A stretch of 64,000 nt of DNA from an uncultured Bacteroidales bacterium (GCA_963753835.1 CAVWDP010000002.1:611578-675577), one strand, 5' to 3'. Shown: positions 38,866-53,432, counted from the first letter of the stretch. Notes: generated from the sequence alone by a model not told the origin. Numbers and translations: made by a program.

Positions 38866-38874
38866 TTTCTTGTC

Positions 38875-39253
38875 CTTTTTTGCTTGTCCAAATCTTCCTT
38901 TGTACTTTTCCCTTGATGGATATTTCCTTTGGTACTTTTTTGCTTGTCCAAAAAAGTACCAAAAAAAGACATCCCCGGTCAATGCCTTCGATTTAGGGAT
39001 GGCTCTTTCAGACACTTTCTCCCTCAGGCTGCGCCCGGGTCCTTAAATGCTTCGCATTTATATGAATAATAACCTCAGATTCAGGAGATGTTCGGGCGGG
39101 GGGCAAGACAGAACGGCGGGCCAGCGATAGCGGGAATGCCCTTATCCGGGCGGGACAGGAGGAATGGCCCGTCCGAAAAGATAAGGGCAGGGAGTGGAGA
39201 AGCTTCGTTCTGACTAGATTTTTTGGTGACTTTTTTATCATGAAAAAAGTCAC
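38875..39253. repeat. Structured non-coding element between convergent genes (hairpin-flanked, GC-rich core)
   Basis: Direct repeat ttttttgcttgtccaaa occurs twice (38875-92, 38935-52). Hairpins GGTACTTTTTT-gcttgtcc-AAAAAAGTACC (38931-60) and GTGACTTTTTT-atcatg-AAAAAAGTCAC (39226-53). Long hairpin CCCTTATCCGGGCGGG...CCCGTCCGaaaaGATAAGGG (39139-87). Confidence 0.6.
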
Positions 39254-39326
39254 AAATAATGCTTTTGAAGACTTTGATCTTAGTTCTTTCATTTAATAAA
39301 GAGCAAAAGAATTGATTACTGTTCAC

Positions 39327-41634
39327 TTAAAATTCATAAATTAATTCCCCCATAATAAAACGACCTGGAGGCAATTTGCCTTTTCGGTCAATGGTCATGT
39401 CATTAAAGATATTCTGTACGGTCAGGGACAATCCGATCCTTTGTGGAAGCTTTTTACTTAATTTTATGTTGAACAGATGATGTGGGTCGATATATTGGGT
39501 ATTTTCATCATCATACCATTCTTTCCCTATAAATTGCCAGTCGAACAGCACATTCACCACTTTGTTTTGCCAGTTGATGGCCGCACCGGCCATGTTGATC
39601 GGAACCTCTATCAAGGATTTCCCTGTTAGGTCTTTATCTTCATTTACCGGGTCTTCGAATTCAAGAATACACGAATGGTTAGTGCTATAGTTTGCACTGA
39701 AAACAAGGTTTGAAAGTATTTCCCAATTGAGTGTGATTTCAGCTCCAATGATCTCTATTTCGGTTATGTTCTGTCGCTGAAGAACAGGCTTCAGGTCTGC
39801 TCCACCAGTTTCAACAGAGTCGCCGGTAGATACAAAATATTGAAAGTCATGACCTCTTGAATAATATACAGATGGCTCGATGGAGATCTTGTCGATGATC
39901 ATCCAGGTCAGCCCCAGCTCATAGTTGACAAGGCGCTCCGGTTTCAGTTCAGGGTTGGCTAGTTTAAATCCTTTGGAAATCTTGCCTGACTTAACAAGGT
40001 CATCGACCTTAGGTGGCATAAAACCGGACGTTATTGAAGCATAGATCCCTAAATCCTGGCGAATCTGATATTGCAAGGCCAACTTTGGGCTAAACTGAAC
40101 CCAGGAATGCTTACCAAACATGGCTGAAACATCTTTGATGAACCCGGTGTTATTTGTAGGATTATAAACGTCCTGGAAGCCATCATAAAACAGGGCATAG
40201 TCAAACCTTAATCCTGCAATGACAGCTAATTTTTTGAAAATCAGGAATTCATCCTGTATAAATATACCAACAAAAAGCAGGTTTCCACCATACTGTACTT
40301 CATCCGTAGAAGTACGGTAAACCTGCCTGGCATCCAGATCCCCCAATTTAACTTCAAAACCGCTCGTAAACAGGTGATGGCGGAAGAAGACACGGGAAAG
40401 GTTGAGCCAGATCCCATAATCGTTTTTTGTTGAATTTGTCTCCGATAACTTGTATTTTCTTGAACTGCTGAAACTTTCATTCTGATTTTTGAAGTCTTCT
40501 ACCTGATAGTATAGCTTTGTATTCAGCTTGAATCTTCCAGGTTGTCCGGTAAAGCTTGAAAGAAGTATTTGACTGTTGTATTGGTCATATGATCCTTCTT
40601 CCTCATAAACCTGGGTACCTGTGCCAAATTTTCCATTATAAAGCCGATAGCTGATGTCAAGCGATGTTACAGTATCGAAGCGGTAACCGGCCAATAATCC
40701 CGCACTGTATTCAAACAGATCAGCTTTGGAGTCCATATGTATCACGGGTTTCTTCAGGTTCCAGGATATAGCCATCCCCTTTTCGGAGAAATCCGTTCAT
40801 TTTCCAGTAAAAACCTGATTCTTTATGCCGGCCAGCTCCGCCAAGATCAAGTGCCCCCCCATAAGTACCTAAAGACCCTCCAAAGGCGCTGACATTACCC
40901 TCAATGGGTTTGATGGGTTTTTTAGTCGTGATATTTATAACGCCTGCCATGGCATTGTTACCGTATATGGCAGAGCTGGGGCCTTTAACTATTTCAATGT
41001 TGTCGATCTGATTTGGTTCAATGAAATTCCAATTCACGGAGCCACCAGCGGCCTTATTCATGGGTACACCATCGAGCAGGATAAGTGTCCTGGAACTGCC
41101 CGGCAACCCACGCATGGTGACACTGGCACTTTTAGAAAAAATTCCCCAGGGCCTGTGTACATAAACATTGGCAATACCCCTGAGGAGATCATCGGTATTC
41201 AGGGCCGGGATCTGCTCAACCAGCTGCTTCGAGATCAGGCCAACCCTGGCCGGCATCAAAGAAAGTTTTCTCCTGGTAAGTGTTGCTGTGATGGTAACAG
41301 GATCGATCTCGACGACCACCGGCCGTACCATGAAGCTTAGTTCAGCGGTTTCAGTATGCAGGTCAATTTGTGTGTTGTAATCAAGATAGCCAATATGCGA
41401 GATAGATAATGTATATGTTCCTGAAGGAAGTTCAGGAAAAGTGAAAAGTCCTTTGCTATCAGTTACGGTACCAAGCTGCAGCTCCCCGATGATCACATGA
41501 GCATCGGTTAACGGACTTTTACTATAGGCATCCATCACCCTTCCTTTCAGCAAAAGGTCTCCGTCTGCCTTTGTGCTTTGCTGAAAAATGAGGAGGGATA
41601 TCCCAAATAATAAAATAGTCAGGAACCGACTCAT
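39327..41634 (-). pseudogene. TonB-dependent receptor (CarboxypepD_reg + plug + barrel), one frameshift near 40733-40745
   Basis: The N-terminal ORF (40720-41634) has the signal, LKGRVMD..., and a plug (TMRGLPGSSRTLILLDGVPMN). The barrel ORF (39327-40775) ends ...GRFIMGELIYEF. The two overlap in different frames. Confidence 0.8.
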
Positions 41635-42528
41635 CTATGGTTGGGTTTTTAGGCTGATGTTCACGCTGCCCTCCTGGGCTCCATTTACTGCATTGACTTT
41701 GAAGATTCCCAGCCTGCCTTCCTGGGTACGGAAAGTGTAGATATCATCAAGCTTCAGTTTCTTGGCCTTCCTCTTAGCTTCCCCTTCATCATAATTGGCA
41801 ATGATGATACTGTCGTTTATAGCGTTATTGAAGTCATCTGCCGCGAGAGATGTTTTCATATAACGTGTTGTATTTATTGATTCCCAGTTGGCAGGATTAG
41901 TAGGAAAGATACCATCTTCAATATTGGCACCCGGTGAGGCAATGGTGTTCTTGTCGATATCATCATAAAAACATAGCATATCGATCCCGGCCTGTAGTGA
42001 AGTATCAGCATCAACGACCTGGTAGAAGTACATCATATTGTTGGCGATATCAAAGCATCCACCAGATTGCTGATTGTCCTGTGCCCCGAATTCAACAGGG
42101 CCATATTCCACGAGAGGAGTATATTGTGCATTGGTGTCCAGGCTTATTTTAATGCTTGTTGATGCAGCATTGCCTTCGCTGTCGCGAACGATAAAATTCC
42201 AATCTTCAACAGGGGCAAGGGTTTTTATAAATATCCCTTCCCACACAAAGTAGGAAGTATTCATACCCGTGTCGAAATACCTGCTGACGCTATCTGAATA
42301 CACTTCGATAAGGAAATTGGTAATGTTCAGGTCGCTGCCCTGCATCAATACCTTCAGGCGGATATCACTTCCTGAAGAAAGTATGGTATCACCAAAAATA
42401 TATCCGTTTTCTTCTACCAGCACGAGGTCAGGAGGGAGATGTTCTACCGTTTTTTTGCAGGAAAAGCTTATGATGATGAGCATAGCCAGAAGGCCCGGCA
42501 TGATCAGGTAGTTGGGTGATCTTGTCAT
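41635..42528 (-). CDS. Hypothetical lipoprotein
   Basis: MTRSPNYLIMPGLLAMLIIISFSC lipobox. Its stop codon abuts the TBDR start codon. Confidence 0.5.
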   Translation of the reverse strand: MTRSPNYLIMPGLLAMLIIISFSCKKTVEHLPPDLVLVEENGYIFGDTILSSGSDIRLKVLMQGSDLNITNFLIEVYSDSVSRYFDTGMNTSYFVWEGIFIKTLAPVEDWNFIVRDSEGNAASTSIKISLDTNAQYTPLVEYGPVEFGAQDNQQSGGCFDIANNMMYFYQVVDADTSLQAGIDMLCFYDDIDKNTIASPGANIEDGIFPTNPANWESINTTRYMKTSLAADDFNNAINDSIIIANYDEGEAKRKAKKLKLDDIYTFRTQEGRLGIFKVNAVNGAQEGSVNISLKTQP

Positions 42529-42532
42529 GTTG

Positions 42533-43117
42533 TTATTGTTCGCTTGATTTAATAAAAGAGTTCTTAATGCTATATAAACCATAACCTAGCATGCCACCCA
42601 GCATTCCGAAAAGGAAGAAACTCAGGATGGTGTACGCAACACCAAATTTTACAAATGCCATATAAGGATGCCCTGATACCAGGTTCACCAGGAGGCGACT
42701 CAGGGGAATACACATATAAGCCATCCCTGATGCTATAGAGATTACAAATAATAGGCGAGATCTTTCCTTCCCAGCTAAATAAAACAGGTCAAGCACGATA
42801 CCAGGGAGCAAATAACTGAATGAATGTAAAACGGTTCCCTGTCCGATACCTGGGATCAGGAGCATGATACCAACACCAAGCATAGCCATCAAGCCTGCAT
42901 ACCTGATATCAGATGACAGGCGAACGAGAGAGATGATAGCCATGAACTCAAGTCCGTGGTGTCCGGGAATATTCAAAGGGATCCTTAAACTAAAATGCAA
43001 GTATGTTGCCAGTGCGCCTCCCATGACTAAAAGGAACAATTCCAGAACCAGTGGAATACTCCGGCTAAGAGATTGACCGGATGATGTCTTTATGGGTAAG
43101 TTTCCATTCATATTCAT
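42533..43117 (-). CDS. Hypothetical polytopic membrane protein (His-containing loop PGHHGLEF)
   Basis: 194 aa with five or six hydrophobic segments. No confident family. Confidence 0.5.
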   Translation of the reverse strand: MNMNGNLPIKTSSGQSLSRSIPLVLELFLLVMGGALATYLHFSLRIPLNIPGHHGLEFMAIISLVRLSSDIRYAGLMAMLGVGIMLLIPGIGQGTVLHSFSYLLPGIVLDLFYLAGKERSRLLFVISIASGMAYMCIPLSRLLVNLVSGHPYMAFVKFGVAYTILSFFLFGMLGGMLGYGLYSIKNSFIKSSEQ

Positions 43118-43182
43118 CGTGTATTTCAGTTTTTTGAGTGATTAAGATAGCTTTATGATCTTTTAATATTGGTCGTACCCAT

Positions 43183-43827
43183 TCATGTATTGATATCCTT
43201 AGCATCTTCCAGGGGATGTTCTCCATCCAATGAGCTAATATTATCCAGGGCCAGTACTTCTTTTATTTCGCGTATGCTGAATACGCCGGCTTTCATATCG
43301 CGTAGTTCTTTGATCCCTCTTCGCCAGATAAACCTTCCATCGTTTCCACTTGCCCGCAGGCCAACAGCCGCCAGGGCGCCAATGATCCCTTCATGATTGC
43401 CGGTAAATCCCTTCAAATAAATATTTGTTTGCTTTGCCAACGCCGTGGCATTATACATATTCAGGACTTTGATCTTGGCTGCCAGTCCCCAATCGATAAT
43501 TTGTTCGTTTACCCCGTCAAATGAGGCAACACAGAGTCCTGCATCAGAACCTGGGGCGCTATATGCAGTTAGATGATCAGCACACAAATCCGTCACAGCA
43601 TTTACATTACTGCACATGAGGTTGATGCAGGCTGAACTGTTCTGAGAAGTGTACCTTATGGCCGGGTCAACAAATAGCTGGTGTCTCGTGATTCCGCTCA
43701 CCTTGCCCATATTTGTTGCTTCCAGTTTGTGGGCGAGTTGCCGGGCCAGGAACCCGGTACCCCGGCTGTTGGCATTATCAGTGTCATCGATGCCTATCAA
43801 CAGATTTATGTAGTTGTCATGATCCAT
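43183..43827 (-). CDS. Stand-alone TiaS N-terminal (DUF1743 / TCKD-like) domain protein
   Basis: 214 aa from ATG 43827. LIGIDDTDNANSRGTGFLA and GIIGALAAVG resemble, as I recall them, the GIDDTDS...GMCTTYLA and GLIGALAAVG motifs of archaeal tRNA-Ile2 agmatidine synthetase TiaS. Confidence 0.55.
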   Translation of the reverse strand: MDHDNYINLLIGIDDTDNANSRGTGFLARQLAHKLEATNMGKVSGITRHQLFVDPAIRYTSQNSSACINLMCSNVNAVTDLCADHLTAYSAPGSDAGLCVASFDGVNEQIIDWGLAAKIKVLNMYNATALAKQTNIYLKGFTGNHEGIIGALAAVGLRASGNDGRFIWRRGIKELRDMKAGVFSIREIKEVLALDNISSLDGEHPLEDAKDINT

Positions 43828-43840
43828 CCGGCAAGCCTGA

Positions 43841-44221
43841 TTACTGGTTTTCCATTTTCTTTTTAAGTTCCAGATAAGCTTCTTCAACTGCATCATCCAG
43901 CTTTTGCTGAAGGGCTGCATAAGCTTCAAGCAGTTTCAAAGCAGCCGGAGTCAACAATGATTGTCCACCTTCCTTTCCACCCCTTGTTTTTTCGGTTAGA
44001 TCATATCCCAGCAATGTTTCTGCCTTTTTCAGGTCACCCCAGGCCTTACGGTAACTGATGCCTGTATCTTCTGCAGCAGATTTCAGGGAACCCTTATCCC
44101 TGACCCCAAGAAGCAATGCATACACCTCTTCTGAGATGATACCCTCACCACTCATGGATGACAACCATAGCTTGTAGTTCAGCAGTACGTTAAAACGATT
44201 TGATTTACCTCTTTTACCCAT
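43841..44221 (-). CDS. ModE N-terminal-domain (wHTH) regulator lacking Mop/TOBE domains
   Basis: GSLKSAAEDTGISYRKAWGDLKKAE...EKTRGGKEGGQSLLTPAALKLL parallels E. coli ModE GSISQGAKDAGISYKSAWDAI...ERATGGKGGGGAVLT. The C-terminus is a short coiled-coil-like tail. Confidence 0.75.
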   Translation of the reverse strand: MGKRGKSNRFNVLLNYKLWLSSMSGEGIISEEVYALLLGVRDKGSLKSAAEDTGISYRKAWGDLKKAETLLGYDLTEKTRGGKEGGQSLLTPAALKLLEAYAALQQKLDDAVEEAYLELKKKMENQ

Positions 44222-44241: not shown

Positions 44242-44266
44242 CGTTATGCAAAGATATACATATCGG
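44242..44266. promoter_or_regulatory. ModE-box-like dyad, site 1
   Basis: cGTTATGCA-aagata-TACATATCgg. 9-6-9 architecture. 19 of 22 positions are identical to site 2. Confidence 0.55.
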
Positions 44267-44270
44267 CAGG

Positions 44271-44278
44271 CAAATTTA
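44271..44278 (-). promoter_or_regulatory. -7 box TAAATTTG (minus strand) for the modE-like operon
   Basis: caaattta on the plus strand. The dyad lies between this box and the ATG at 44221. Confidence 0.4.
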
Positions 44279-44402: not shown

Positions 44403-44897
44403 ATGAAAAAGATATTCAAGATCATAGCAGTGTTTGTCCTGGCAGGATTTATAAATATAGCTGCCTTTGCACATTGTGAAGTACCCTGTGGGATTTATAC
44501 GGACCATCTGCGCATTGAATTGATCAAAGAGCACATCATGACTATTGAGAAAGCCATGATCCAGATTGAGACATTGTCTTCAGAAGAAGAGATTAACTAT
44601 AACCAGCTTGTCAGGTGGATCGATACCAAGGAGCATCATGCCAACCTCATACAGGAAATAGCAGAGCAATATTTCATGACTCAGCGAATCAAACCAGTTG
44701 ACCCCGAAAATGAAGAAGCGTATAATAAATATATTGCCCAGCTGACACTGGCGCATGAGATGCTGATCTACTCGATGAAGACCAAGCAGTCGACGGATCT
44801 CAAATACACAGAGAAATTAAGTGCCACTGTAGATAAGTTCGCGGAAGCTTACTTTGGTCCTGAAGACCAGAAACACCTTCAGGAACACAAGCACTAA
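44403..44897 (+). CDS. sodN: Nickel superoxide dismutase with Sec-type signal peptide
   Basis: Ni-hook HCEVPCGIY (His1, Cys2, Cys6, Tyr9) follows directly after MKKIFKIIAVFVLAGFINIAAFA. The upstream extension to 44223 in the track ORF is rejected. Confidence 0.85.
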   Translation: MKKIFKIIAVFVLAGFINIAAFAHCEVPCGIYTDHLRIELIKEHIMTIEKAMIQIETLSSEEEINYNQLVRWIDTKEHHANLIQEIAEQYFMTQRIKPVDPENEEAYNKYIAQLTLAHEMLIYSMKTKQSTDLKYTEKLSATVDKFAEAYFGPEDQKHLQEHKH

Positions 44898-45137: not shown

Positions 45138-47294
45138 CTATTCCTGGTGTGGTTTAACTACTTCAATCACTTCCGGCAGGTCCATCCCAAGTTTTTCAAG
45201 GTGTGAAATTTTAGGAACACCATTCTTTGTCCATCCCCTGCGCGTGTATACAGCATCAAGCAGTTTTTCATACTGAGATTCCCTGTATTCCCTCATGATG
45301 GCTTTCTTTTCAGCAGTAGTTTTGCCTTCCGGATCAACACCAAGGATCTCTTTCAATTGTTTGTCGTAGCGTTCTGCCCTTGATTCGTATTCTTCATCTG
45401 TTACAGGTCCTGCAGCACGATATGGCTGAGCATCAAACTCCCTGGTTCCATACCCTCTCCTGAGGTTGAAAATCCTTTGGAAGTTATATACACGTTCCGA
45501 CATGGTGATCATTTCTTCCTTACTGAAAGGTTTATCCGTGACAGCAGTGTATATGGTCACATAGTTGTCGACATGCTCAGGCACCTTTGCAGGCTCATCT
45601 GTTTCAGCATTATTTTCCGGTTCAACATCGTTCCATGGAAGTTTACATAAACCAACCAGACCGAACCAGGTACGGAACATCGGGAAGTAATGTAATGCTT
45701 CTGCTTTATCTTCAAAAGTAGGGATCTGGTTATTCACCATGTCCATGAAAATGAGCCAGGCTTCATCATGCTGAGGCCCTTTGTTGGTCATTGCAAAACC
45801 TCCCTGTTGGGCGAGAGATTCCTTGGAAACATATTCTGAGTATTCCAGGCCCTTATTTTCCATTCCAATGTCCTGGAGGAAATCGGCCTCACCCCATCCT
45901 TTTTCAATGAACATTTCTTTCATCTTGCGAACTCCAAGCCCGGCAACCAGGCCAAAGCCTTCGCCGCGGGCAAGCATGTGCAACAATTCCATTGCTGAGT
46001 CAGCATTACCAAAGTTGAGTTTCAGTCCACCGGTCCGCTCTTCATTCAGGATGCCGCTCTCGTAACATTCCATAATAAAGGCAAGCAATGTACCCCAGGT
46101 AATGGTGCAAATACCATAAGTATCGCAATAGAAGTTTGCTTCAATAACATAGTCGGGATTGAAGATCCCGCAATTGGAGCCCAGGCCACCGGCATTTTCA
46201 TATTCTGGTCCGTCAACGATCACTTGTTGCCCGGCATAAGGACCTGTTCTTACCAGATATTCATCCACTCCCTTTGCACAGGCCATATTACAGCCAATCC
46301 AGCATCCATCGGGTATGCCCTGGGTAAAGCGTGCCTTCCAAACGTCTCCATGGATGGCGTCGGCTTCAGGATGGCTTCCGAACTTATAATTGTGTACAGG
46401 AAGCAGGTCGTAATCATTCATAATATTAACGAGGTGGGCTGTACCTTTAGTCCTCATTTCGGCCTGATCGTCATCAAGTTCACGCATCTCCTTATTGAAG
46501 GTCTTTCCCCTTTCCATGATGGCCTGCAGGTCTTTCACATCATTCAGGTTACCCTTTACACCCGGAATCCGGCAAACGATGGCCTTGATCTTCTTGTCGC
46601 GGAAAACAGTTCCAATGCCACCACGGCCGGCTTGTTTCAGCCTTACTTTCTTCCGTTTAGGATCGTAGAAGCTAAAATTGAGCATCCCGATCAATGAGTT
46701 TCCGGCAGCAGCACCCGTTGAAACCACAGCAATATTTTTCTTGTCTCTGTCATCAACAGCATACATCTCTGTCAACACCTCAACAAGCTCATGGCTATCC
46801 ATGGGCTCCAGCGGTGCTTCAAAGATCTCCACACTGTGATCGACACCGTCGATATAGATCATGATGTCTTTTTCAGCTTTTCCCTGCAATTCAATGGCAT
46901 CAAAGCCTGAGAATTTGAGGAAAGGCCCAAAGAATCCGCCAACATTGCTATCAATTGGAATGTTGGTTTGGGGAGAAATGGAAACACAAATAGATTTTCC
47001 TGATCCTGAGTACTGGGTGATCCCGCCAATTGGGCCGGACGAGATATTGATTTCGTTTTCCGGGTCATTCCACTTAGTATCCGGTTTTGTGCCGTCCCAC
47101 AAAAGCCGTAATCCATAACCCTTTCCACCTATGAACTTCTCTTTCATCTCGGCAGGAACTGCCTTTTCCTTGATCTCATTATCAGAAACATTAATGTAGA
47201 GGGTCTTGTCATTATAGCCCCTGAAAATTGGTTTCCATTCATATGACCATTTCGCCAGTGTTTTGTGGGCGTTTTTCATTTCCTCGATATTCAT
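45138..47294 (-). CDS. aor: Aldehyde:ferredoxin oxidoreductase family (tungsto/molybdopterin) enzyme, long YdhV-like form
   Basis: 718 aa. AOR N-domain (GGKGYGLRLLW), Cys cluster DGCWIGCNMAC, and a large pterin-binding C-terminal region. Confidence 0.8.
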   Translation of the reverse strand: MNIEEMKNAHKTLAKWSYEWKPIFRGYNDKTLYINVSDNEIKEKAVPAEMKEKFIGGKGYGLRLLWDGTKPDTKWNDPENEINISSGPIGGITQYSGSGKSICVSISPQTNIPIDSNVGGFFGPFLKFSGFDAIELQGKAEKDIMIYIDGVDHSVEIFEAPLEPMDSHELVEVLTEMYAVDDRDKKNIAVVSTGAAAGNSLIGMLNFSFYDPKRKKVRLKQAGRGGIGTVFRDKKIKAIVCRIPGVKGNLNDVKDLQAIMERGKTFNKEMRELDDDQAEMRTKGTAHLVNIMNDYDLLPVHNYKFGSHPEADAIHGDVWKARFTQGIPDGCWIGCNMACAKGVDEYLVRTGPYAGQQVIVDGPEYENAGGLGSNCGIFNPDYVIEANFYCDTYGICTITWGTLLAFIMECYESGILNEERTGGLKLNFGNADSAMELLHMLARGEGFGLVAGLGVRKMKEMFIEKGWGEADFLQDIGMENKGLEYSEYVSKESLAQQGGFAMTNKGPQHDEAWLIFMDMVNNQIPTFEDKAEALHYFPMFRTWFGLVGLCKLPWNDVEPENNAETDEPAKVPEHVDNYVTIYTAVTDKPFSKEEMITMSERVYNFQRIFNLRRGYGTREFDAQPYRAAGPVTDEEYESRAERYDKQLKEILGVDPEGKTTAEKKAIMREYRESQYEKLLDAVYTRRGWTKNGVPKISHLEKLGMDLPEVIEVVKPHQE

Positions 47295-47381: not shown

Positions 47382-47407
47382 CTGATATGCAAACAAATGC
47401 ATATCGG
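47382..47407. promoter_or_regulatory. ModE-box-like dyad, site 2
   Basis: ctGATATGCA-aacaaa-TGCATATCgg. Perfect 8-bp inverted repeat with a 6-nt spacer. Confidence 0.55.
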
Positions 47408-47599: not shown

Positions 47600-48184
47600 A
47601 TGATATTGCAGGAAATAAAAAATAAACTGAAGGACAAGGTTGTAGGCATTGCAGGTTGTGGTGGACTTGGTTCTAATGCTGCCATAGCACTGGCTCGATC
47701 TGGCATTGGAAAGCTTGTTTTGGCTGATTTCGACAGGGTTGAACAGGCCAACCTAAATCGCCAGTACTTTTTCAGGGAGCAGCTTGGTGAATTTAAGGCT
47801 GAAGCCTTACGGGATAATATCCTTAGGATTGATCAGCATGTAAGTGTAGAAACACATGTGCTTAACCTTGAACCTGACAGTATAGTCACATTCTTTGCTG
47901 ATTGTGATGTGATTGTGGAGGCCTTTGATGTGGATATTGCAAAACAGATGATCATTGAAACAGTCCTGGCAGATATGCCTGATAAATATATAATCTCAGG
48001 GCAGGGAGTAGCCGGATATGGGAATAATGAAGAGATCAAAACGCAAAGGTTGGGGAAGTTGATCATTGTAGGAGATGGGGAAACGGAAGTTTCGGAAAAT
48101 AAACCACCTTTGGGTCCCAAAGTGGCAGCCATTGCAAATATGCAGGCCAACATTGTGCTGGAGATCCTGCTTAATGGAGAGTAG
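47600..48184 (+). CDS. thiF: Short ThiF-family (E1-like) sulfur-carrier adenylyltransferase
   Basis: 194 aa. GCGGLGSN nucleotide loop, NLNRQ, EAFD...K, and a C-terminal PKVAAIANMQAN, as in the roughly 200-aa ThiF family. Confidence 0.75.
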   Translation: MILQEIKNKLKDKVVGIAGCGGLGSNAAIALARSGIGKLVLADFDRVEQANLNRQYFFREQLGEFKAEALRDNILRIDQHVSVETHVLNLEPDSIVTFFADCDVIVEAFDVDIAKQMIIETVLADMPDKYIISGQGVAGYGNNEEIKTQRLGKLIIVGDGETEVSENKPPLGPKVAAIANMQANIVLEILLNGE

Positions 48185-48185
48185 T

Positions 48186-48389
48186 ATGGAAATTTTACTG
48201 AACAACCGCAACGAAAATATTGATAGGGGAGAGATCACACTGGAAGAACTCATCCAGCACAAGAATTTTACTTTCAAATTACTTGTCACCAAAGTTAACG
48301 GTCGACTGGTAAAGAAGGATGACAGGGGGACTTTCATCATCCGGGAAGGGGATGAGGTGAATGTGCTGCATATGATATCAGGGGGATGA
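48186..48389 (+). CDS. thiS: ThiS/MoaD-type sulfur-carrier protein
   Basis: 67 aa ending in ...VLHMISGG (C-terminal Gly-Gly). Its ATG lies 1 nt after the thiF-like stop. Confidence 0.75.
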   Translation: MEILLNNRNENIDRGEITLEELIQHKNFTFKLLVTKVNGRLVKKDDRGTFIIREGDEVNVLHMISGG

Positions 48390-49755: not shown

Positions 49756-50601
49756 TTAGTTAAGTCGTATGAATGTGTAGGTGATAAATCCTATTTGAGT
49801 CTCCTTGGCATTTAGGTCGGGTTCAAATTTGGATTTTAAAGCTGCTTTTATTGCTTCATCAACAAGCGATTTGCTTGAATTATTTGATCCTTTCATTTCA
49901 AATACAGCATTTGTGACTTGCCCGGATCTGTCAACATAAACTTTTATCTTGACCGTCCCTACTTCATCAGAAGTATATACCGGTTTTACAAGTTCCAATG
50001 CTCCCCTTCCCCCCAACTCATATCCAATACCTTCATCCCCTTTACCTGCCCCTTCATAATTTTTGGCATCAATAGTACCATCAGGTTTTCCCTGGTCGCC
50101 GGGCTGCCCGGTCTCTCCCTGGTTGCTTCCTTCACCATCGGTATTGCTGTTGCCTTTGTACAAAGCCCTGTCATTTACTTTTGGAGGTTCAGGCTCGGGT
50201 TCTGCTTCTTTTTCTACTTCTTGCACCACTTCTTCAACAGGGTCAACCACAGGCTGGATGACTTCTTCCTCCTGTTTCTCTTCATCTTTTTCTTCAATTT
50301 CCTCATCCTCAATGGCAGGGGCTTCCTCAATGTCCTGGGTGATTAGATCTTCTTCAGGCTCCGGCTCGGGTTCAGCTTGTGGAGGAGGCTGTTGTGGAGG
50401 AGGTTGTTGTATGGGGGGCGGGGTTTGCTCCTGCACATAACCCATGCCCTGATCACTGCTGCCCAGGTTCACCTCCACGCCTTCTTCGCCCGGAAGGGGA
50501 AGGGGTGTGGACAGGGCAAAATAAAGTATGGCCAGCAAAGCCAGCAAATGGAACCCTACTGTCCCAACAATACCTTTAAAGTGGTTATTCTTTTCGCTCA
50601 T
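49756..50601 (-). CDS. tonB: TonB-family energy transducer
   Basis: 281 aa. N-terminal TM, Pro/Glu-rich linker (PPPIQQPPPQQPPPQAEPEPEPEE) and a TonB C-terminal domain. Confidence 0.85.
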   Translation of the reverse strand: MSEKNNHFKGIVGTVGFHLLALLAILYFALSTPLPLPGEEGVEVNLGSSDQGMGYVQEQTPPPIQQPPPQQPPPQAEPEPEPEEDLITQDIEEAPAIEDEEIEEKDEEKQEEEVIQPVVDPVEEVVQEVEKEAEPEPEPPKVNDRALYKGNSNTDGEGSNQGETGQPGDQGKPDGTIDAKNYEGAGKGDEGIGYELGGRGALELVKPVYTSDEVGTVKIKVYVDRSGQVTNAVFEMKGSNNSSKSLVDEAIKAALKSKFEPDLNAKETQIGFITYTFIRLN

Positions 50602-50602
50602 T

Positions 50603-51016
50603 TTATCGTTTTGGCTTCGTAGCCAGGATTACCTTGTGTTTGGTATTATACTTTTTGTTGATGTTGTTCACGGCATCGATCACATTAACCACATATTGTA
50701 CAGGTACGCTTTTGTCGGACCGAAGTACGACGGAAGCATCGATCTGACCTGCGATCTTTGAATCGATCCTGTCTTGCAATTGTAGCTCACTCACCCTGTT
50801 TTCATCAACGAAGTACTGATACTTCTCATTAATATAAATGGTCACTGATTGCTTGGCCATGGTCTTGCTGTTACTGTTGGGCAACAAAAGCTTGATGGCA
50901 TTAGGTGCGACCAGGGTTGAGGTCAGCATAAAGAAGATCAATAGCAGGAATACCAGGTCAGACATGGATGCCATGCTGAATTCCGCTTTTCTTTTATTTC
51001 TTGTCTGAATAGCCAT
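50603..51016 (-). CDS. exbD: ExbD/TolR biopolymer transport protein
   Basis: 137 aa. SMSDLVFLLLIFFMLTS TM followed by a periplasmic domain. Confidence 0.9.
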   Translation of the reverse strand: MAIQTRNKRKAEFSMASMSDLVFLLLIFFMLTSTLVAPNAIKLLLPNSNSKTMAKQSVTIYINEKYQYFVDENRVSELQLQDRIDSKIAGQIDASVVLRSDKSVPVQYVVNVIDAVNNINKKYNTKHKVILATKPKR

Positions 51017-51026
51017 AATGCCTCTT

Positions 51027-51716
51027 TTAGCTTGCCGGTTCGTTCAGCAGGTCCATAAATTCAGTTGACCTGGCTTCAAGCAGATAAACCAGTTTTTCAA
51101 CCTTTGCTACCAGGATGTTATAACAAACATAGGCCAGGATACCCACGATCAGGCCTCCCACGGTAGTGATCATGGCCTGGTAAATTCCTGTCGACAAAAG
51201 GGCAATATCAATGTTATTTCCGGCCATCGACATATCATAAAATGCAATGATCATACCAATGACGGTTCCGAGGAAACCCAACATAGGTGCTGCACCGGCA
51301 ATGGTCGCCAGCCCTGCAACATTCTTTTCGAGCCTGGAAACCTCCAGCTTCCCAACATTTTCGATGGCAGCGTTGATATCGTTCAATGGCCTGCCAATCC
51401 TCATCAGTCCTTTCTCGATCATCCGGGCTATCGGGCTTTTGTTGCTTTTACACAATGCGAGGGCCGAATCAACCTTTCCGCCTTTAATAAAGTCGCGGAT
51501 GTTGTTCATGAAATGGCGGTCTTCCCGAGAAGCTTTGTTGATCGTGAAAAATCTTTCGATAAAGATGTAAACAGCAATGATGGAAAGCAGTCCCAGAATG
51601 GCCATGATCCAGCCACCTTTGAGAATGAGTTCATAAATCGTGAGTGTGATCTCCGTGGGTTCCATATCGGCAGCTCCTGCCGCAGTTTGAACCTGTAATA
51701 AATAGCTTATGATCAT
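51027..51716 (-). CDS. exbB: MotA/TolQ/ExbB proton channel protein
   Basis: 229 aa. The conserved C-terminal TM pair contains APMLGFLGTVIGMI. Confidence 0.9.
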   Translation of the reverse strand: MIISYLLQVQTAAGAADMEPTEITLTIYELILKGGWIMAILGLLSIIAVYIFIERFFTINKASREDRHFMNNIRDFIKGGKVDSALALCKSNKSPIARMIEKGLMRIGRPLNDINAAIENVGKLEVSRLEKNVAGLATIAGAAPMLGFLGTVIGMIIAFYDMSMAGNNIDIALLSTGIYQAMITTVGGLIVGILAYVCYNILVAKVEKLVYLLEARSTEFMDLLNEPAS

Positions 51717-51982: not shown

Positions 51983-53432
51983 ATGTTTTTATTAATGGTT
52001 ATCATCTTTATCCTGGGATACACAGCAATTGCGCTGGAGCACCCTATTAAAGTGGATAAAGCAGCATCAGCCTTGCTTACAGGAACCATCCTTTGGGGAT
52101 TGTATGCATTGAATTCGACGGGAATTTTAGGCCTGGATCTAAGCCCATCGTGGCAGGCAGTAAAAGATGTCAGTCATGATGTGATGGCATTTATTTACCC
52201 GGCGATCGATCATGTCAGGTTCGACAGACTCTGGGAAGGCCCTGCAGAACTCTCACATCATATTTCTGAATTTGTGGTTCTTGACCTTGAGCATCACCTT
52301 GTTGAAATCTCTCAAATTCTTTTCTTTTTGTTGGGAGCCATGACCATTGTTGAAACAGTTGACCAGCACCAGGGATTCAAGATCATTACCGACCGGATCA
52401 GAGCGACCAATAAGGTCAGGCTGCTCTGGATCCTCAGCTTCCTGACTTTCTTCATGTCAGCTACACTGGATAATCTGACCACAACTATTGTGATGGTTGC
52501 CTTGCTGAGAAAGCTTATTGATGATAAGAAAACGAGGTGGTTTTTTGCCAGTATGGTGGTTCTGGCAGCTAATGCCGGAGGTGCATGGTCGCCCATCGGG
52601 GATGTGACAACGATCATGCTATGGATCGGTGGTCAGGTAACCACAGCCAATATTATCATGTATGTCTTCATTCCAAGTATGGTAACCATGATTGTACCCT
52701 TGCTTATAGTAACCTTTACTGTGAAAGGTGATGTACAACGGCCTGTGCTGGAAAATGGGGAACATCATGAATTTACGAGCGCCTTTGAGCGGAGGTTATT
52801 ACTGATCATGGGAGTTTCAGCATTACTTTTTGTTCCTATTTTTAAAACCGTTACCCATCTTCCACCCTATATGGGGATGCTCTTTGGCCTCGGTGTGATC
52901 TGGTTGGTGACTGAGATTATGCACAGGAACAAACCATTGGAAGACAGAAGAAAGCTTACTGTTATTGGCATCCTGAAGAAAAGTGGATGTCCCTACAATA
53001 TTCTTCTTCCTCGGTATTCTTACGGCAGTTGCTGCATTGCAGTCGATGGGCCACCTTGATGTACTGGCGAAATACCTCGATGAAAACCTTCACAATATAT
53101 ATGCGATCAACCTGATCATTGGTGTCCTTTCAGCAATTGTCGACAATGTGCCACTGGTTGCCGGAGCTATGGGAATGTATCCATTGGCTGAGGCTGGTTC
53201 AGTAGGATATTTAGCTGACTTTGTAGTAGATGGGAAGTTCTGGCAGTTCCTGGCTTATTGTGCCGGAACAGGTGGTAGTATCCTGATCATTGGTTCTGCT
53301 GCAGGTGTTGCAGCCATGGGACTGGAAAAGATCGATTTTATTTGGTATATGAAAAGGATTTCACTCCTTGCATTGGCAGGATATATTGCAGGTGCTGCAG
53401 TATACTATTTCCAGATGCAGATCATTGGATAG
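51983..53432 (+). pseudogene. nhaD: NhaD-type Na+/H+ antiporter, one frameshift in the gaaaag run near 52975-52985
   Basis: ORF 1 ends ...RRKLTVIGILKK then garbled sequence. ORF 2 resumes as DVPTIFFFLGILTAVAALQSMGHL in another frame. Together they give about 480 aa with a typical NhaD/ArsB-fold layout. Confidence 0.75.

Follow-up and report, generated by a model that had tools for sequence, protein, structure and literature searches.

A candidate TonB-dependent uptake cassette linked to tungsten and molybdenum cofactor metabolism in Bacteroidales

In the current view, bacteria take up tungsten and molybdenum as free oxyanions that pass porins in the outer membrane and are then imported by the Mod, Tup or Wtp ATP-binding cassette (ABC) importers. 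A 2026 survey attributes TupABC to practically every microbe with a class I-IV tungsten oxidoreductase and makes no mention of Bacteroidetes or TonB receptors (PMC13328260). Here we analyse a stretch of 64,000 nucleotides (nt) from an uncultured Bacteroidales bacterium (GCA_963753835.1, CAVWDP010000002.1:611578-675577; the window, to which all positions refer), and in particular a cassette of five genes at 39327-44221. Open reading frame (ORF) calls and domain searches confirm what an earlier reading of the sequence alone (the sequence-only reading) had described, namely five co-oriented genes on the minus strand, which encode a ModE-like regulator, a kinase-like protein with a TCKD domain, an inner-membrane protein, a lipoprotein and a TonB-dependent receptor. 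The cassette is very probably a functional part of molybdenum/tungsten (Mo/W) cofactor metabolism and, on balance, we consider that it supplies the adjacent aldehyde:ferredoxin oxidoreductase (AOR), a tungsten-containing enzyme, with imported tungsten, and possibly molybdenum, for its pyranopterin cofactor.

Compared to ModE regulons, the locus shares the winged-helix homology of the regulator, the TATG-N10-CATA core and symmetry of the operator, and the placement of sites before uptake genes and a cofactor-dependent enzyme, whereas the regulator in the window is devoid of a Mop/TOBE domain and the controlled uptake genes are the TonB cassette rather than modABC. The WtpABC, TupABC and ModABC importers have the presumed cargo and the company of AOR, MoeA and Moa genes in common with the cassette, and WtpA-like genes are embedded in some cassettes. 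However, in agreement with the sequence-only reading, no such trio is present in the window, as WtpA-like, permease and ATPase queries matched only LptB (tblastn), and the cassette adds a TonB-energised outer-membrane step and an unrelated inner pair. The outer-membrane components resemble BtuB-BtuG and SusC-SusD in that the receptor has an N-terminal CarboxypepD_reg domain, with the gene for a lipoprotein with a surface-export-like signal ahead of it, but the lipoprotein has no detectable similarity to BtuG or SusD, and many relatives of the cassette add a protein sorted by the type IX secretion system (T9SS). TonB-energised import of trace metals outside the iron paradigm is known from CntO, ZnuD, FrpB4 and OprC/NosA, to which the receptor shows generic plug similarity only.

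The inner pair, i.e. the membrane protein and the kinase-like protein, is reminiscent of the S-components of energy-coupling factor (ECF) transporters, such as RibU and YkoE, and of transport and trapping pairs, which it resembles by a predicted six-helix fold of moderate similarity, a motif loop on the outer side and a kinase-fold partner. In contrast to these, the cassette is without EcfT/EcfA, the membrane protein has no significant membership in an S-component Pfam family, and the partner is of the TiaS type and not a known vitamin kinase. TiaS, the archaeal tRNA-Ile2 agmatidine synthetase, and methanogenesis marker protein 11 share the TCKD fold and sequence similarity over the N-terminal 155 residues; the kinase-like protein differs by being bacterial, by lacking the RNA-binding domains, by a C-terminal domain of its own of ~95 residues and by a gene that overlaps the membrane protein gene. 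Hence, the outer-membrane half represents a known design with an apparently new cargo, and the inner half apparently has no described counterpart. In agreement with the previous suggestion of an undescribed arrangement, searches of the full-text literature (subscription-only literature was not covered) returned no description of TonB-dependent uptake of tungstate or molybdate, of the cassette described here or of bacterial TCKD-like proteins, and nothing relevant was found in the literature on methanogenesis marker 11.

The kinase-like protein is found in at least 489 genomes, nearly all of them Bacteroidales or Bacteroidota metagenome-assembled genomes. The scan covered a single genome for each species, with aligned kinase-like proteins as query, and 80 loci were kept and analysed by tblastn, ORF clustering and Pfam/NCBIfam searches. 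The one-strand order of kinase-like protein, membrane protein, lipoprotein and receptor is near universal among these, with the four families represented in 79, 76, 63 and 62 loci, respectively, and contig ends accounting for most missing members; the regulator is present in 36. In 23 of the 80 loci AOR immediately precedes the cassette in the same orientation, and a divergent ThiF gene is found in 20. Directly downstream, the cassette is followed by MoeA (12 loci), MoaA (11), MoaC (8) or a MOSC-MogA-like fusion (8). A WtpA-like tungstate-binding protein (best match NF003196, E 1.5e-56) is encoded in seven loci, in five of these in-between the regulator and the kinase-like gene, and L027 and L074 harbour a full set of WtpA-type binding protein, permease and ATPase beside the cassette. 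In several loci (e.g. L034, L037, L047, L051 and L056) a single string starts with AOR, a Ppnp-like gene and a helix-turn-helix (HTH) gene, continues with the four-gene cassette core, and ends with a T9SS-sorted protein, MoeA, MoaA, MoaC and a MogA-like gene. The surroundings thus vary with lineage yet return to Mo/W-cofactor metabolism: a Mo/W gene is present in 20 of the 43 loci of at least 15 kb, a Mo/W gene or operator in 54 of all 80, and the gene linkage reappears at identities of the kinase-like protein as low as 45%. Homologous cassettes repeatedly adjoin AOR, Mo/W-cofactor genes and WtpA-like genes. In the 64-kb window itself, tblastn revealed no WtpA/ModA-type binding protein, permease, MoeA, MoaA, MoaC or MogA.

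AOR and the cassette also share an operator. The regulator possesses a ModE-type N-terminal winged helix, matching TIGR00637, residues 26-105 of E. coli ModE (1b9m; E 1.6e-8) and also 2ijl, of 135 residues. Only this N-terminal domain is matched, a Mop/TOBE molybdate-binding domain is absent from the 126 residues, and the relatives, with 123-146 residues, agree with the short form; hence, the previous assignment as modE-like holds for the DNA-binding domain and does not extend to the Mop domains. The -7 box and dyad reported upstream of the operon were located at 44271-44278 (a Bacteroidetes-type TAnnTTTG) and 44242-44265 (a CGATATG-N10-CATAACG palindrome immediately after the box), with a second TAnnTTTG at 44249-44256 inside the palindrome spacer. 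In ~30 loci the same layout, TAnnTTTG and then CGATATG-N10-CATATCG, is found ~40 nt before the regulator start. With one mismatch allowed in total, CGATATG-N10-CATATCG occurs at 74 sites in 1.27 Mb of loci, compared to ~1 expected by our own estimate. With few exceptions, the sites fall into four positions: ~40 nt ahead of the regulator gene, ahead of AOR at a distance of 69-116 nt (12 related loci), ~30 nt ahead of the lipoprotein gene and, occasionally, ahead of the kinase-like gene or a gene for an NAD-type aldehyde dehydrogenase. Many loci thus have a separate operator for the lipoprotein-receptor pair.

Exactly two sites are present in the window, with 0.03 expected from shuffles: the one at the operon and one at 47383-47406, 89 nt upstream of the AOR start codon. 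AOR and the cassette are therefore placed in one putative ModE-type regulon, in which AOR would be a co-regulated consumer of the cofactor. The strongly enriched TATG-N10-CATA sites, putative targets of the 126-residue regulator, have the core of the M. acetivorans ModE box, where the palindrome RTTATGT-N8-RCATAAY is needed for binding, as determined by electrophoretic mobility shift assay (PMC12327845). Since the operon site directly adjoins the -7 box and extends over the start region, the regulator probably represses its own operon. The AOR site is located well upstream of the likely AOR -7 box, and the differing positions suggest, by analogy to E. coli, that the uptake operon is repressed and AOR activated. 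A scan of the operon for sigma-70 promoters and terminators was uninformative, with counts at shuffle level, and Rfam scans detected neither a molybdenum cofactor (Moco) riboswitch nor another RNA near the locus, only weak chance matches.

The oxidoreductase encoded next to the cassette has the composition of a class I locus, i.e. a large subunit with AFOR_N and AFOR_C domains and adjoining genes for ThiF and a small ThiS-like protein, in line with class I tungsten oxidoreductase genes adjoining worX and thiF (PMC13328260). ThiF and the ThiS/MoaD-like protein represent the pterin-sulfuration pair typical of such loci. AOR and the nickel superoxide dismutase (Ni-SOD) were correctly recognised as neighbours from the start (Table 1).

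Table 1. Positions of the cassette genes, control elements and neighbouring genes in the window.
Feature	Position	Strand	Remarks
ModE-N-like HTH regulator, 126 residues	43841-44221	-	TIGR00637 3.4e-19; weak HTH_1
TiaS-TCKD-like protein as assembled	43183-43827	-	214-residue ORF
TiaS-TCKD-like cytoplasmic ATP-using protein, repaired, 253 residues	43065-43827	-	homologues 246-257 residues
Six-helix inner-membrane protein, 194 residues	42533-43117	-	family alignment, model
Lipoprotein, 297 residues, orphan family	41635-42528	-	lipobox Cys
TonB receptor, N-part (CarboxypepD_reg + plug)	40720-41634	-	
TonB receptor, C-part (barrel)	39327-40775	-	
TonB receptor, repaired, 768 residues (CarboxypepD_reg + plug + barrel)	39327-41634	-	Plug 9.2e-25, barrel 7.4e-39
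Promoter/operator of the operon	44242-44278	-	-7 box TAAATTTG + palindrome
Ni-SOD	44403-44897	+	between operon and AOR, divergent from operon
AOR (tungsten-containing oxidoreductase large subunit)	45138-47294	-	AFOR_N 1.5e-46, AFOR_C 5.7e-96
ModE-type operator, TGATATG-N10-CATATCG	47383-47406	.	divergent AOR/ThiF intergenic region
ThiF-like adenylyltransferase	47600-48184	+	ThiF 4.6e-32
ThiS/MoaD-like small protein	~48186-48389	+	ThiS homologue
FolC, then TonB/ExbD/ExbB set	49756-51716		beyond ThiF/ThiS

Two of the cassette genes required repair prior to further analysis. The receptor frame, already described as broken near 40733-40745, is interrupted by one extra G at 40733/40734 (tatGGac), and only upon its removal are plug and barrel joined in one polypeptide; intact relatives of 760-769 residues read RDS[ILT]DSK across the site. 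A second break, not in the sequence-only reading, which had correctly assigned the gene as TCKD-like, is caused by an extra G at 43197/43198 (aaGGat) that truncates the kinase-like protein, with the C-terminus (ISIHEWVRP...IRSIS) encoded in the other frame, down to 43065. The 253-residue protein P0210 from an independent short-read assembly is identical to the window on both sides of this break, matching frame 1 up to the break and frame 2 beyond it. P0210 thus reads straight through, which shows the G to be surplus in the window and makes an assembly error the likely cause. An intact receptor copy at >=90% identity, which could prove that frameshift an error too, was not found, and no contig on record contains the exact sequences of the membrane protein and kinase-like protein of the window. 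Following repair, the kinase-like gene overlaps the start of the membrane protein gene by 47-53 nt, depending on the ATG, and in each of the 53 related loci with a placeable start the two genes share 47 or 50 nt. The previously listed gaps of 13, 65, 4 and 0 nt are literally correct, with the 65-nt gap being an artefact of the missed frameshift. We note that the CitMHS transporter gene at 51983-53432, unrelated to the cassette, is split by a frameshift near 52941-52993 (relatives are intact, with 482 residues), which brings the number of broken genes within 14 kb to three and is suggestive of indels in the assembly. A single-base assembly error for all three breaks is the most economical reading, with the receptor site unproven. 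That both frameshifts are real and the cassette is a decaying pseudogene cluster in this organism would be in line with two out of five genes being broken as assembled, but is very unlikely considering that the short-read-derived kinase-like protein is intact, that at each of the two breaks a single G has become GG on the minus strand, that an unrelated neighbour is split as well, and that no further lesions are present, with 66-72% conservation to intact relatives.

The membrane protein was modelled as a six-helix bundle (predicted local distance difference test score (pLDDT) 85.7, predicted template modelling (TM) score 0.80). The top five PDB matches detected with Foldseek are all ECF S-components, with TM-scores of 0.46-0.62, probabilities of 0.97-1.0 and E ~0.1; TmRibU (5kbw) and 5edl lead the list (TM-scores 0.51-0.62). 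By sequence, the protein has no Pfam, NCBIfam or PDB match, nor is there a Pfam match in 37 relatives, and only 3 of 43 divergent members match PF09819 weakly (E >=0.0028). A profile search against 1.8 billion representatives identified a compact family of 339 clusters, the best 150 of which are ~185-205 residues long or fragments, and among these 150 no fusions or bridges to named families were found. No EcfT/EcfA/EcfA' module is part of the cassette in any of the 80 loci (the search covered the loci and not whole genomes). The invariant motif IPG(H/R)HGLEFM is located in the loop connecting helices 1 and 2, on the predicted periplasmic side according to the positive-inside rule, and conserved Arg and Glu/Asp residues line the helices. 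The first His of PGHHGLEF is replaced by Arg in several family members, an exchange that would fit anion binding better than cation binding.

For the kinase-like protein, the model (pLDDT 91) places residues 1-155 on the TCKD domain of TiaS (3amu; E 2.7e-10, root-mean-square deviation 2.3 A), and residues 5-157 align also by sequence (E 1e-8). Both the GIDDTD motif (D14, D15 and D17) and T24, the counterpart of TiaS Thr18 in the alignment, are invariant, so that the protein is equipped with a TCKD kinase domain including the DDxD motif. The ferredoxin-like, OB and zinc-ribbon domains of the ~420-residue TiaS are absent from its 253 residues, the ~95 C-terminal residues form a separate domain without clear match, and NF040849 scores 30 bits against a cut-off of 600. 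The TiaS kinase domain has been described with dual RNA and protein specificity (PMC11938285). Weak secondary structural matches were obtained to the pterin pyrophosphokinase HPPK (E 4e-3 to 1e-2, TM-scores 0.25-0.30).

Surface export of Bacteroidetes lipoproteins is signalled by acidic residues following the lipid-anchored Cys. The cassette lipoprotein, which has no Pfam, NCBIfam or PDB match, carries a Cys-Lys-Lys-x-x-Glu-like signal after the lipobox, with invariant C24, K26, K254 and K256 and an invariant basic patch, GKRKAK, and in related loci its gene is always immediately upstream of the receptor gene. By the export-signal rule, it is probably a surface-exposed partner of the receptor. 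The receptor itself showed no orthology to a receptor of known specificity in NCBIfam, PDB and homologue searches, and clear orthology to one of a different specificity was thus not found either: all NCBIfam matches are far below the respective cut-offs, e.g. TonB-hemin with 98.7 bits for the N-fragment and 87.9 bits for the C-fragment compared to 316.85, the best PDB match (E 1e-20) is limited to the plug, and CntO is among the PDB sequence matches through generic plug similarity only.

Based on the gene content, conservation and genomic linkage, combined with the common operator, the folds and the conserved catalytic motif, we infer the following model for transport, substrate, direction of regulation and role of the inner pair. 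The small ModE-DNA-binding-domain protein would bind CGATATG-N10-CATATCG at its own promoter and upstream of AOR. The surface lipoprotein and TonB receptor would take the substrate, tungstate or molybdate or a complexed or thio form thereof, across the outer membrane, possibly energised by the ExbB/ExbD/TonB set encoded 6 kb away. On the periplasmic side, the six-helix S-component-like protein may bind the substrate via the (H/R)HGLE loop and pass it inward in conjunction with the translationally coupled TiaS-type partner, which may spend ATP either to drive the import or to modify and trap the cargo. The inner pair may serve import with energising or trapping by ATP, pterin salvage, or as a sensor and kinase for the regulator; import is favoured because the pair is linked tighter to the receptor genes than to the regulator. 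More tentatively, the pair could be a new import device, i.e. a solitary capture protein that is driven or rendered irreversible by a kinase-fold partner cleaving ATP to AMP, without ECF or ABC modules, and form together with receptor and lipoprotein the first TonB pathway for tungsten or molybdenum.

Several observations weigh against tungsten or molybdenum import. The evidence consists of guilt by association and predicted folds. Two of the five window genes are frameshifted as assembled, and approximately one third of the loci, many of them short contigs, have no Mo/W gene or operator within reach. The regulator has no metal-sensing domain, and its responsiveness to tungsten or molybdenum is assumed. 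The resemblance to S-components is moderate, with TM-scores of 0.5-0.6 and a Foldseek E of ~0.1, and S-component and kinase pairs are classically vitamin-salvage devices, so that an organic cargo would fit such a pair as well as an oxyanion. Finally, the full WtpA-type ABC set beside the cassette in L027 and L074 indicates that the inner pair is no simple replacement for it. A small but real possibility is that the cassette salvages not the metal but an organic intermediate of the pterin cofactor, such as a dephosphorylated or cyclic pyranopterin or a breakdown product of Moco or its tungsten equivalent, which receptor and lipoprotein would import, the S-component-like protein carry inward and the kinase-like protein (pyro)phosphorylate and thereby trap. 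ThiW/ThiM, YkoE/ThiD and PnuC/NadR work by such transport and trapping, and a TonB receptor with a surface lipoprotein is the usual Bacteroidetes design for vitamins, as in BtuB-BtuG. The fold similar to vitamin-binding proteins, the pairing with a kinase-domain protein through a conserved gene overlap, the HPPK matches and the receptor and lipoprotein design are all compatible with salvage. However, the HPPK similarity is weak, the cassette is often strung together with a complete de novo pathway (MoaA, MoaC, MoeA and MogA-like) and WtpA-like proteins, and control is exerted through a putative ModE-type box rather than a cofactor riboswitch.

Alternatively, the inner pair may not transport at all: the membrane protein would sense the periplasmic tungsten or molybdenum oxyanion, the TiaS-type kinase would signal to the regulator, and only receptor and lipoprotein would function in transport. 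This would supply the input that a regulator without Mop domains calls for, in agreement with the regulator, kinase-like and membrane protein genes forming a first transcription unit while the lipoprotein-receptor pair often has its own operator, and with the co-existence with the full WtpA-type ABC systems. We consider it unlikely, as the pair is associated with the lipoprotein and receptor in 62-63 of the 80 loci compared to 36 for the regulator, still precedes the receptor genes where no regulator adjoins, and has a fold similar to substrate-capture proteins and unlike known sensors. An ordinary iron, heme or siderophore receptor operon that is located next to AOR by chance is highly improbable: homologues automatically named 'involved in Fe transport' and best NCBIfam and PDB matches to heme and siderophore receptors speak for it, but these matches are far below the family cut-offs and mostly restricted to the plug, the Mo/W linkage persists at 45% identity of the kinase-like protein, and the operator is common to AOR and cassette. 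Least of all do we expect nickel uptake for the adjoining Ni-SOD, despite its divergent position next to the operon and the His pair in the membrane protein motif. The sequence-only reading had proposed tungstate, molybdate or nickel as cargo of a TonB-dependent route and co-occurrence with sodN as a check, but Ni-SOD is encoded in only 5 of the 80 loci, all closest relatives of the window and each with the gene in-between AOR and the regulator, and the nickel enzyme is therefore an incidental neighbour. In addition, Arg replaces the first motif His in several members, and neither operators nor genes connected the cassette to nickel enzymes in other places. The nickel and iron readings were hence rejected on distribution and score grounds, leaving from the original proposal the link to AOR and to tungstate or molybdate, for which the comparative support is strong, with import itself as the likely function.

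Further observations concern the neighbourhood and relatives of the cassette. The Ni-SOD (44403-44897) has a Sec-signal-like leader, MKKIFKIIAVFVLAGFINIAAFA, directly preceding the Ni-hook HCEVPCGIY, suggesting export or an unusual N-terminal processing. At the other end of the cassette, a unique insert of ~460 nt (38866-39326) separates lptB from the receptor stop codon, a junction that measures 6 nt in the relative L001. Its GC-rich core, in which a strong local hairpin is found near 39137-39190, is enclosed by two A/T-rich hairpins, GGTACTTTTTT...AAAAAAGTACC and GTGACTTTTTT...AAAAAAGTCAC. A second copy is absent from both the window and the loci, and the overall fold z-score is only -1.4. 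In L013, L017, L018, L035 and L077 the ModE-domain regulator adjoins NAD-type aldehyde dehydrogenase genes (e.g. L013:6909-8462), with a ModE-type operator just upstream of such a gene at L035:6661, a possible sign of a switch that spares tungsten by exchanging AOR for a metal-free isoenzyme.

In 17 loci (e.g. L025:3211-3492) a 93-residue Ppnp/DUF1255 cupin of the nucleoside phosphorylase family, absent from the window, is encoded in-between AOR and the regulator. A T9SS-sorted protein of ~281 residues with a Por_Secre_tail and a weak F5/8-type-C match follows the receptor in 38 loci (e.g. L013:14530-15372), though not in the window and its closest relatives, and could be a secreted or surface capture protein. 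Family f23, an orphan of ~350 residues without Pfam or NCBIfam match (L027:16349-17413, L032:18534-19550 and four others), is located within a WtpA-type ABC operon and comes after second sets of genes for lipoprotein, T9SS protein and receptor. The kinase-like and membrane protein pair is also present without lipoprotein and receptor in four non-Bacteroidota bins (L060, L070, L075 and L080, labelled Anaerolineae, Isosphaeraceae, Steroidobacteraceae and Alcaligenaceae; mis-binning is possible), in two of which an orphan 155-residue gene precedes the pair. These four contexts gave no functional clue except for a convergent TonB receptor in L075.

If the proposed function is true, tungsten and molybdenum would join the short list of TonB cargoes, through a route under control of a ModE-type box in hundreds of Bacteroidales genomes and as an alternative to Tup, Wtp and Mod in anaerobic Bacteroidota. 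This would help to explain how these anaerobes, living in sediments and guts, hold their own in the competition for tungsten at picomolar to nanomolar levels, and provide a function for four protein families that are now annotated as hypothetical. The ModE-domain regulator without sensor raises the question of how the metal is sensed, and the pair of kinase-like and S-component-like proteins may turn out to energise or trap transport in a new manner.

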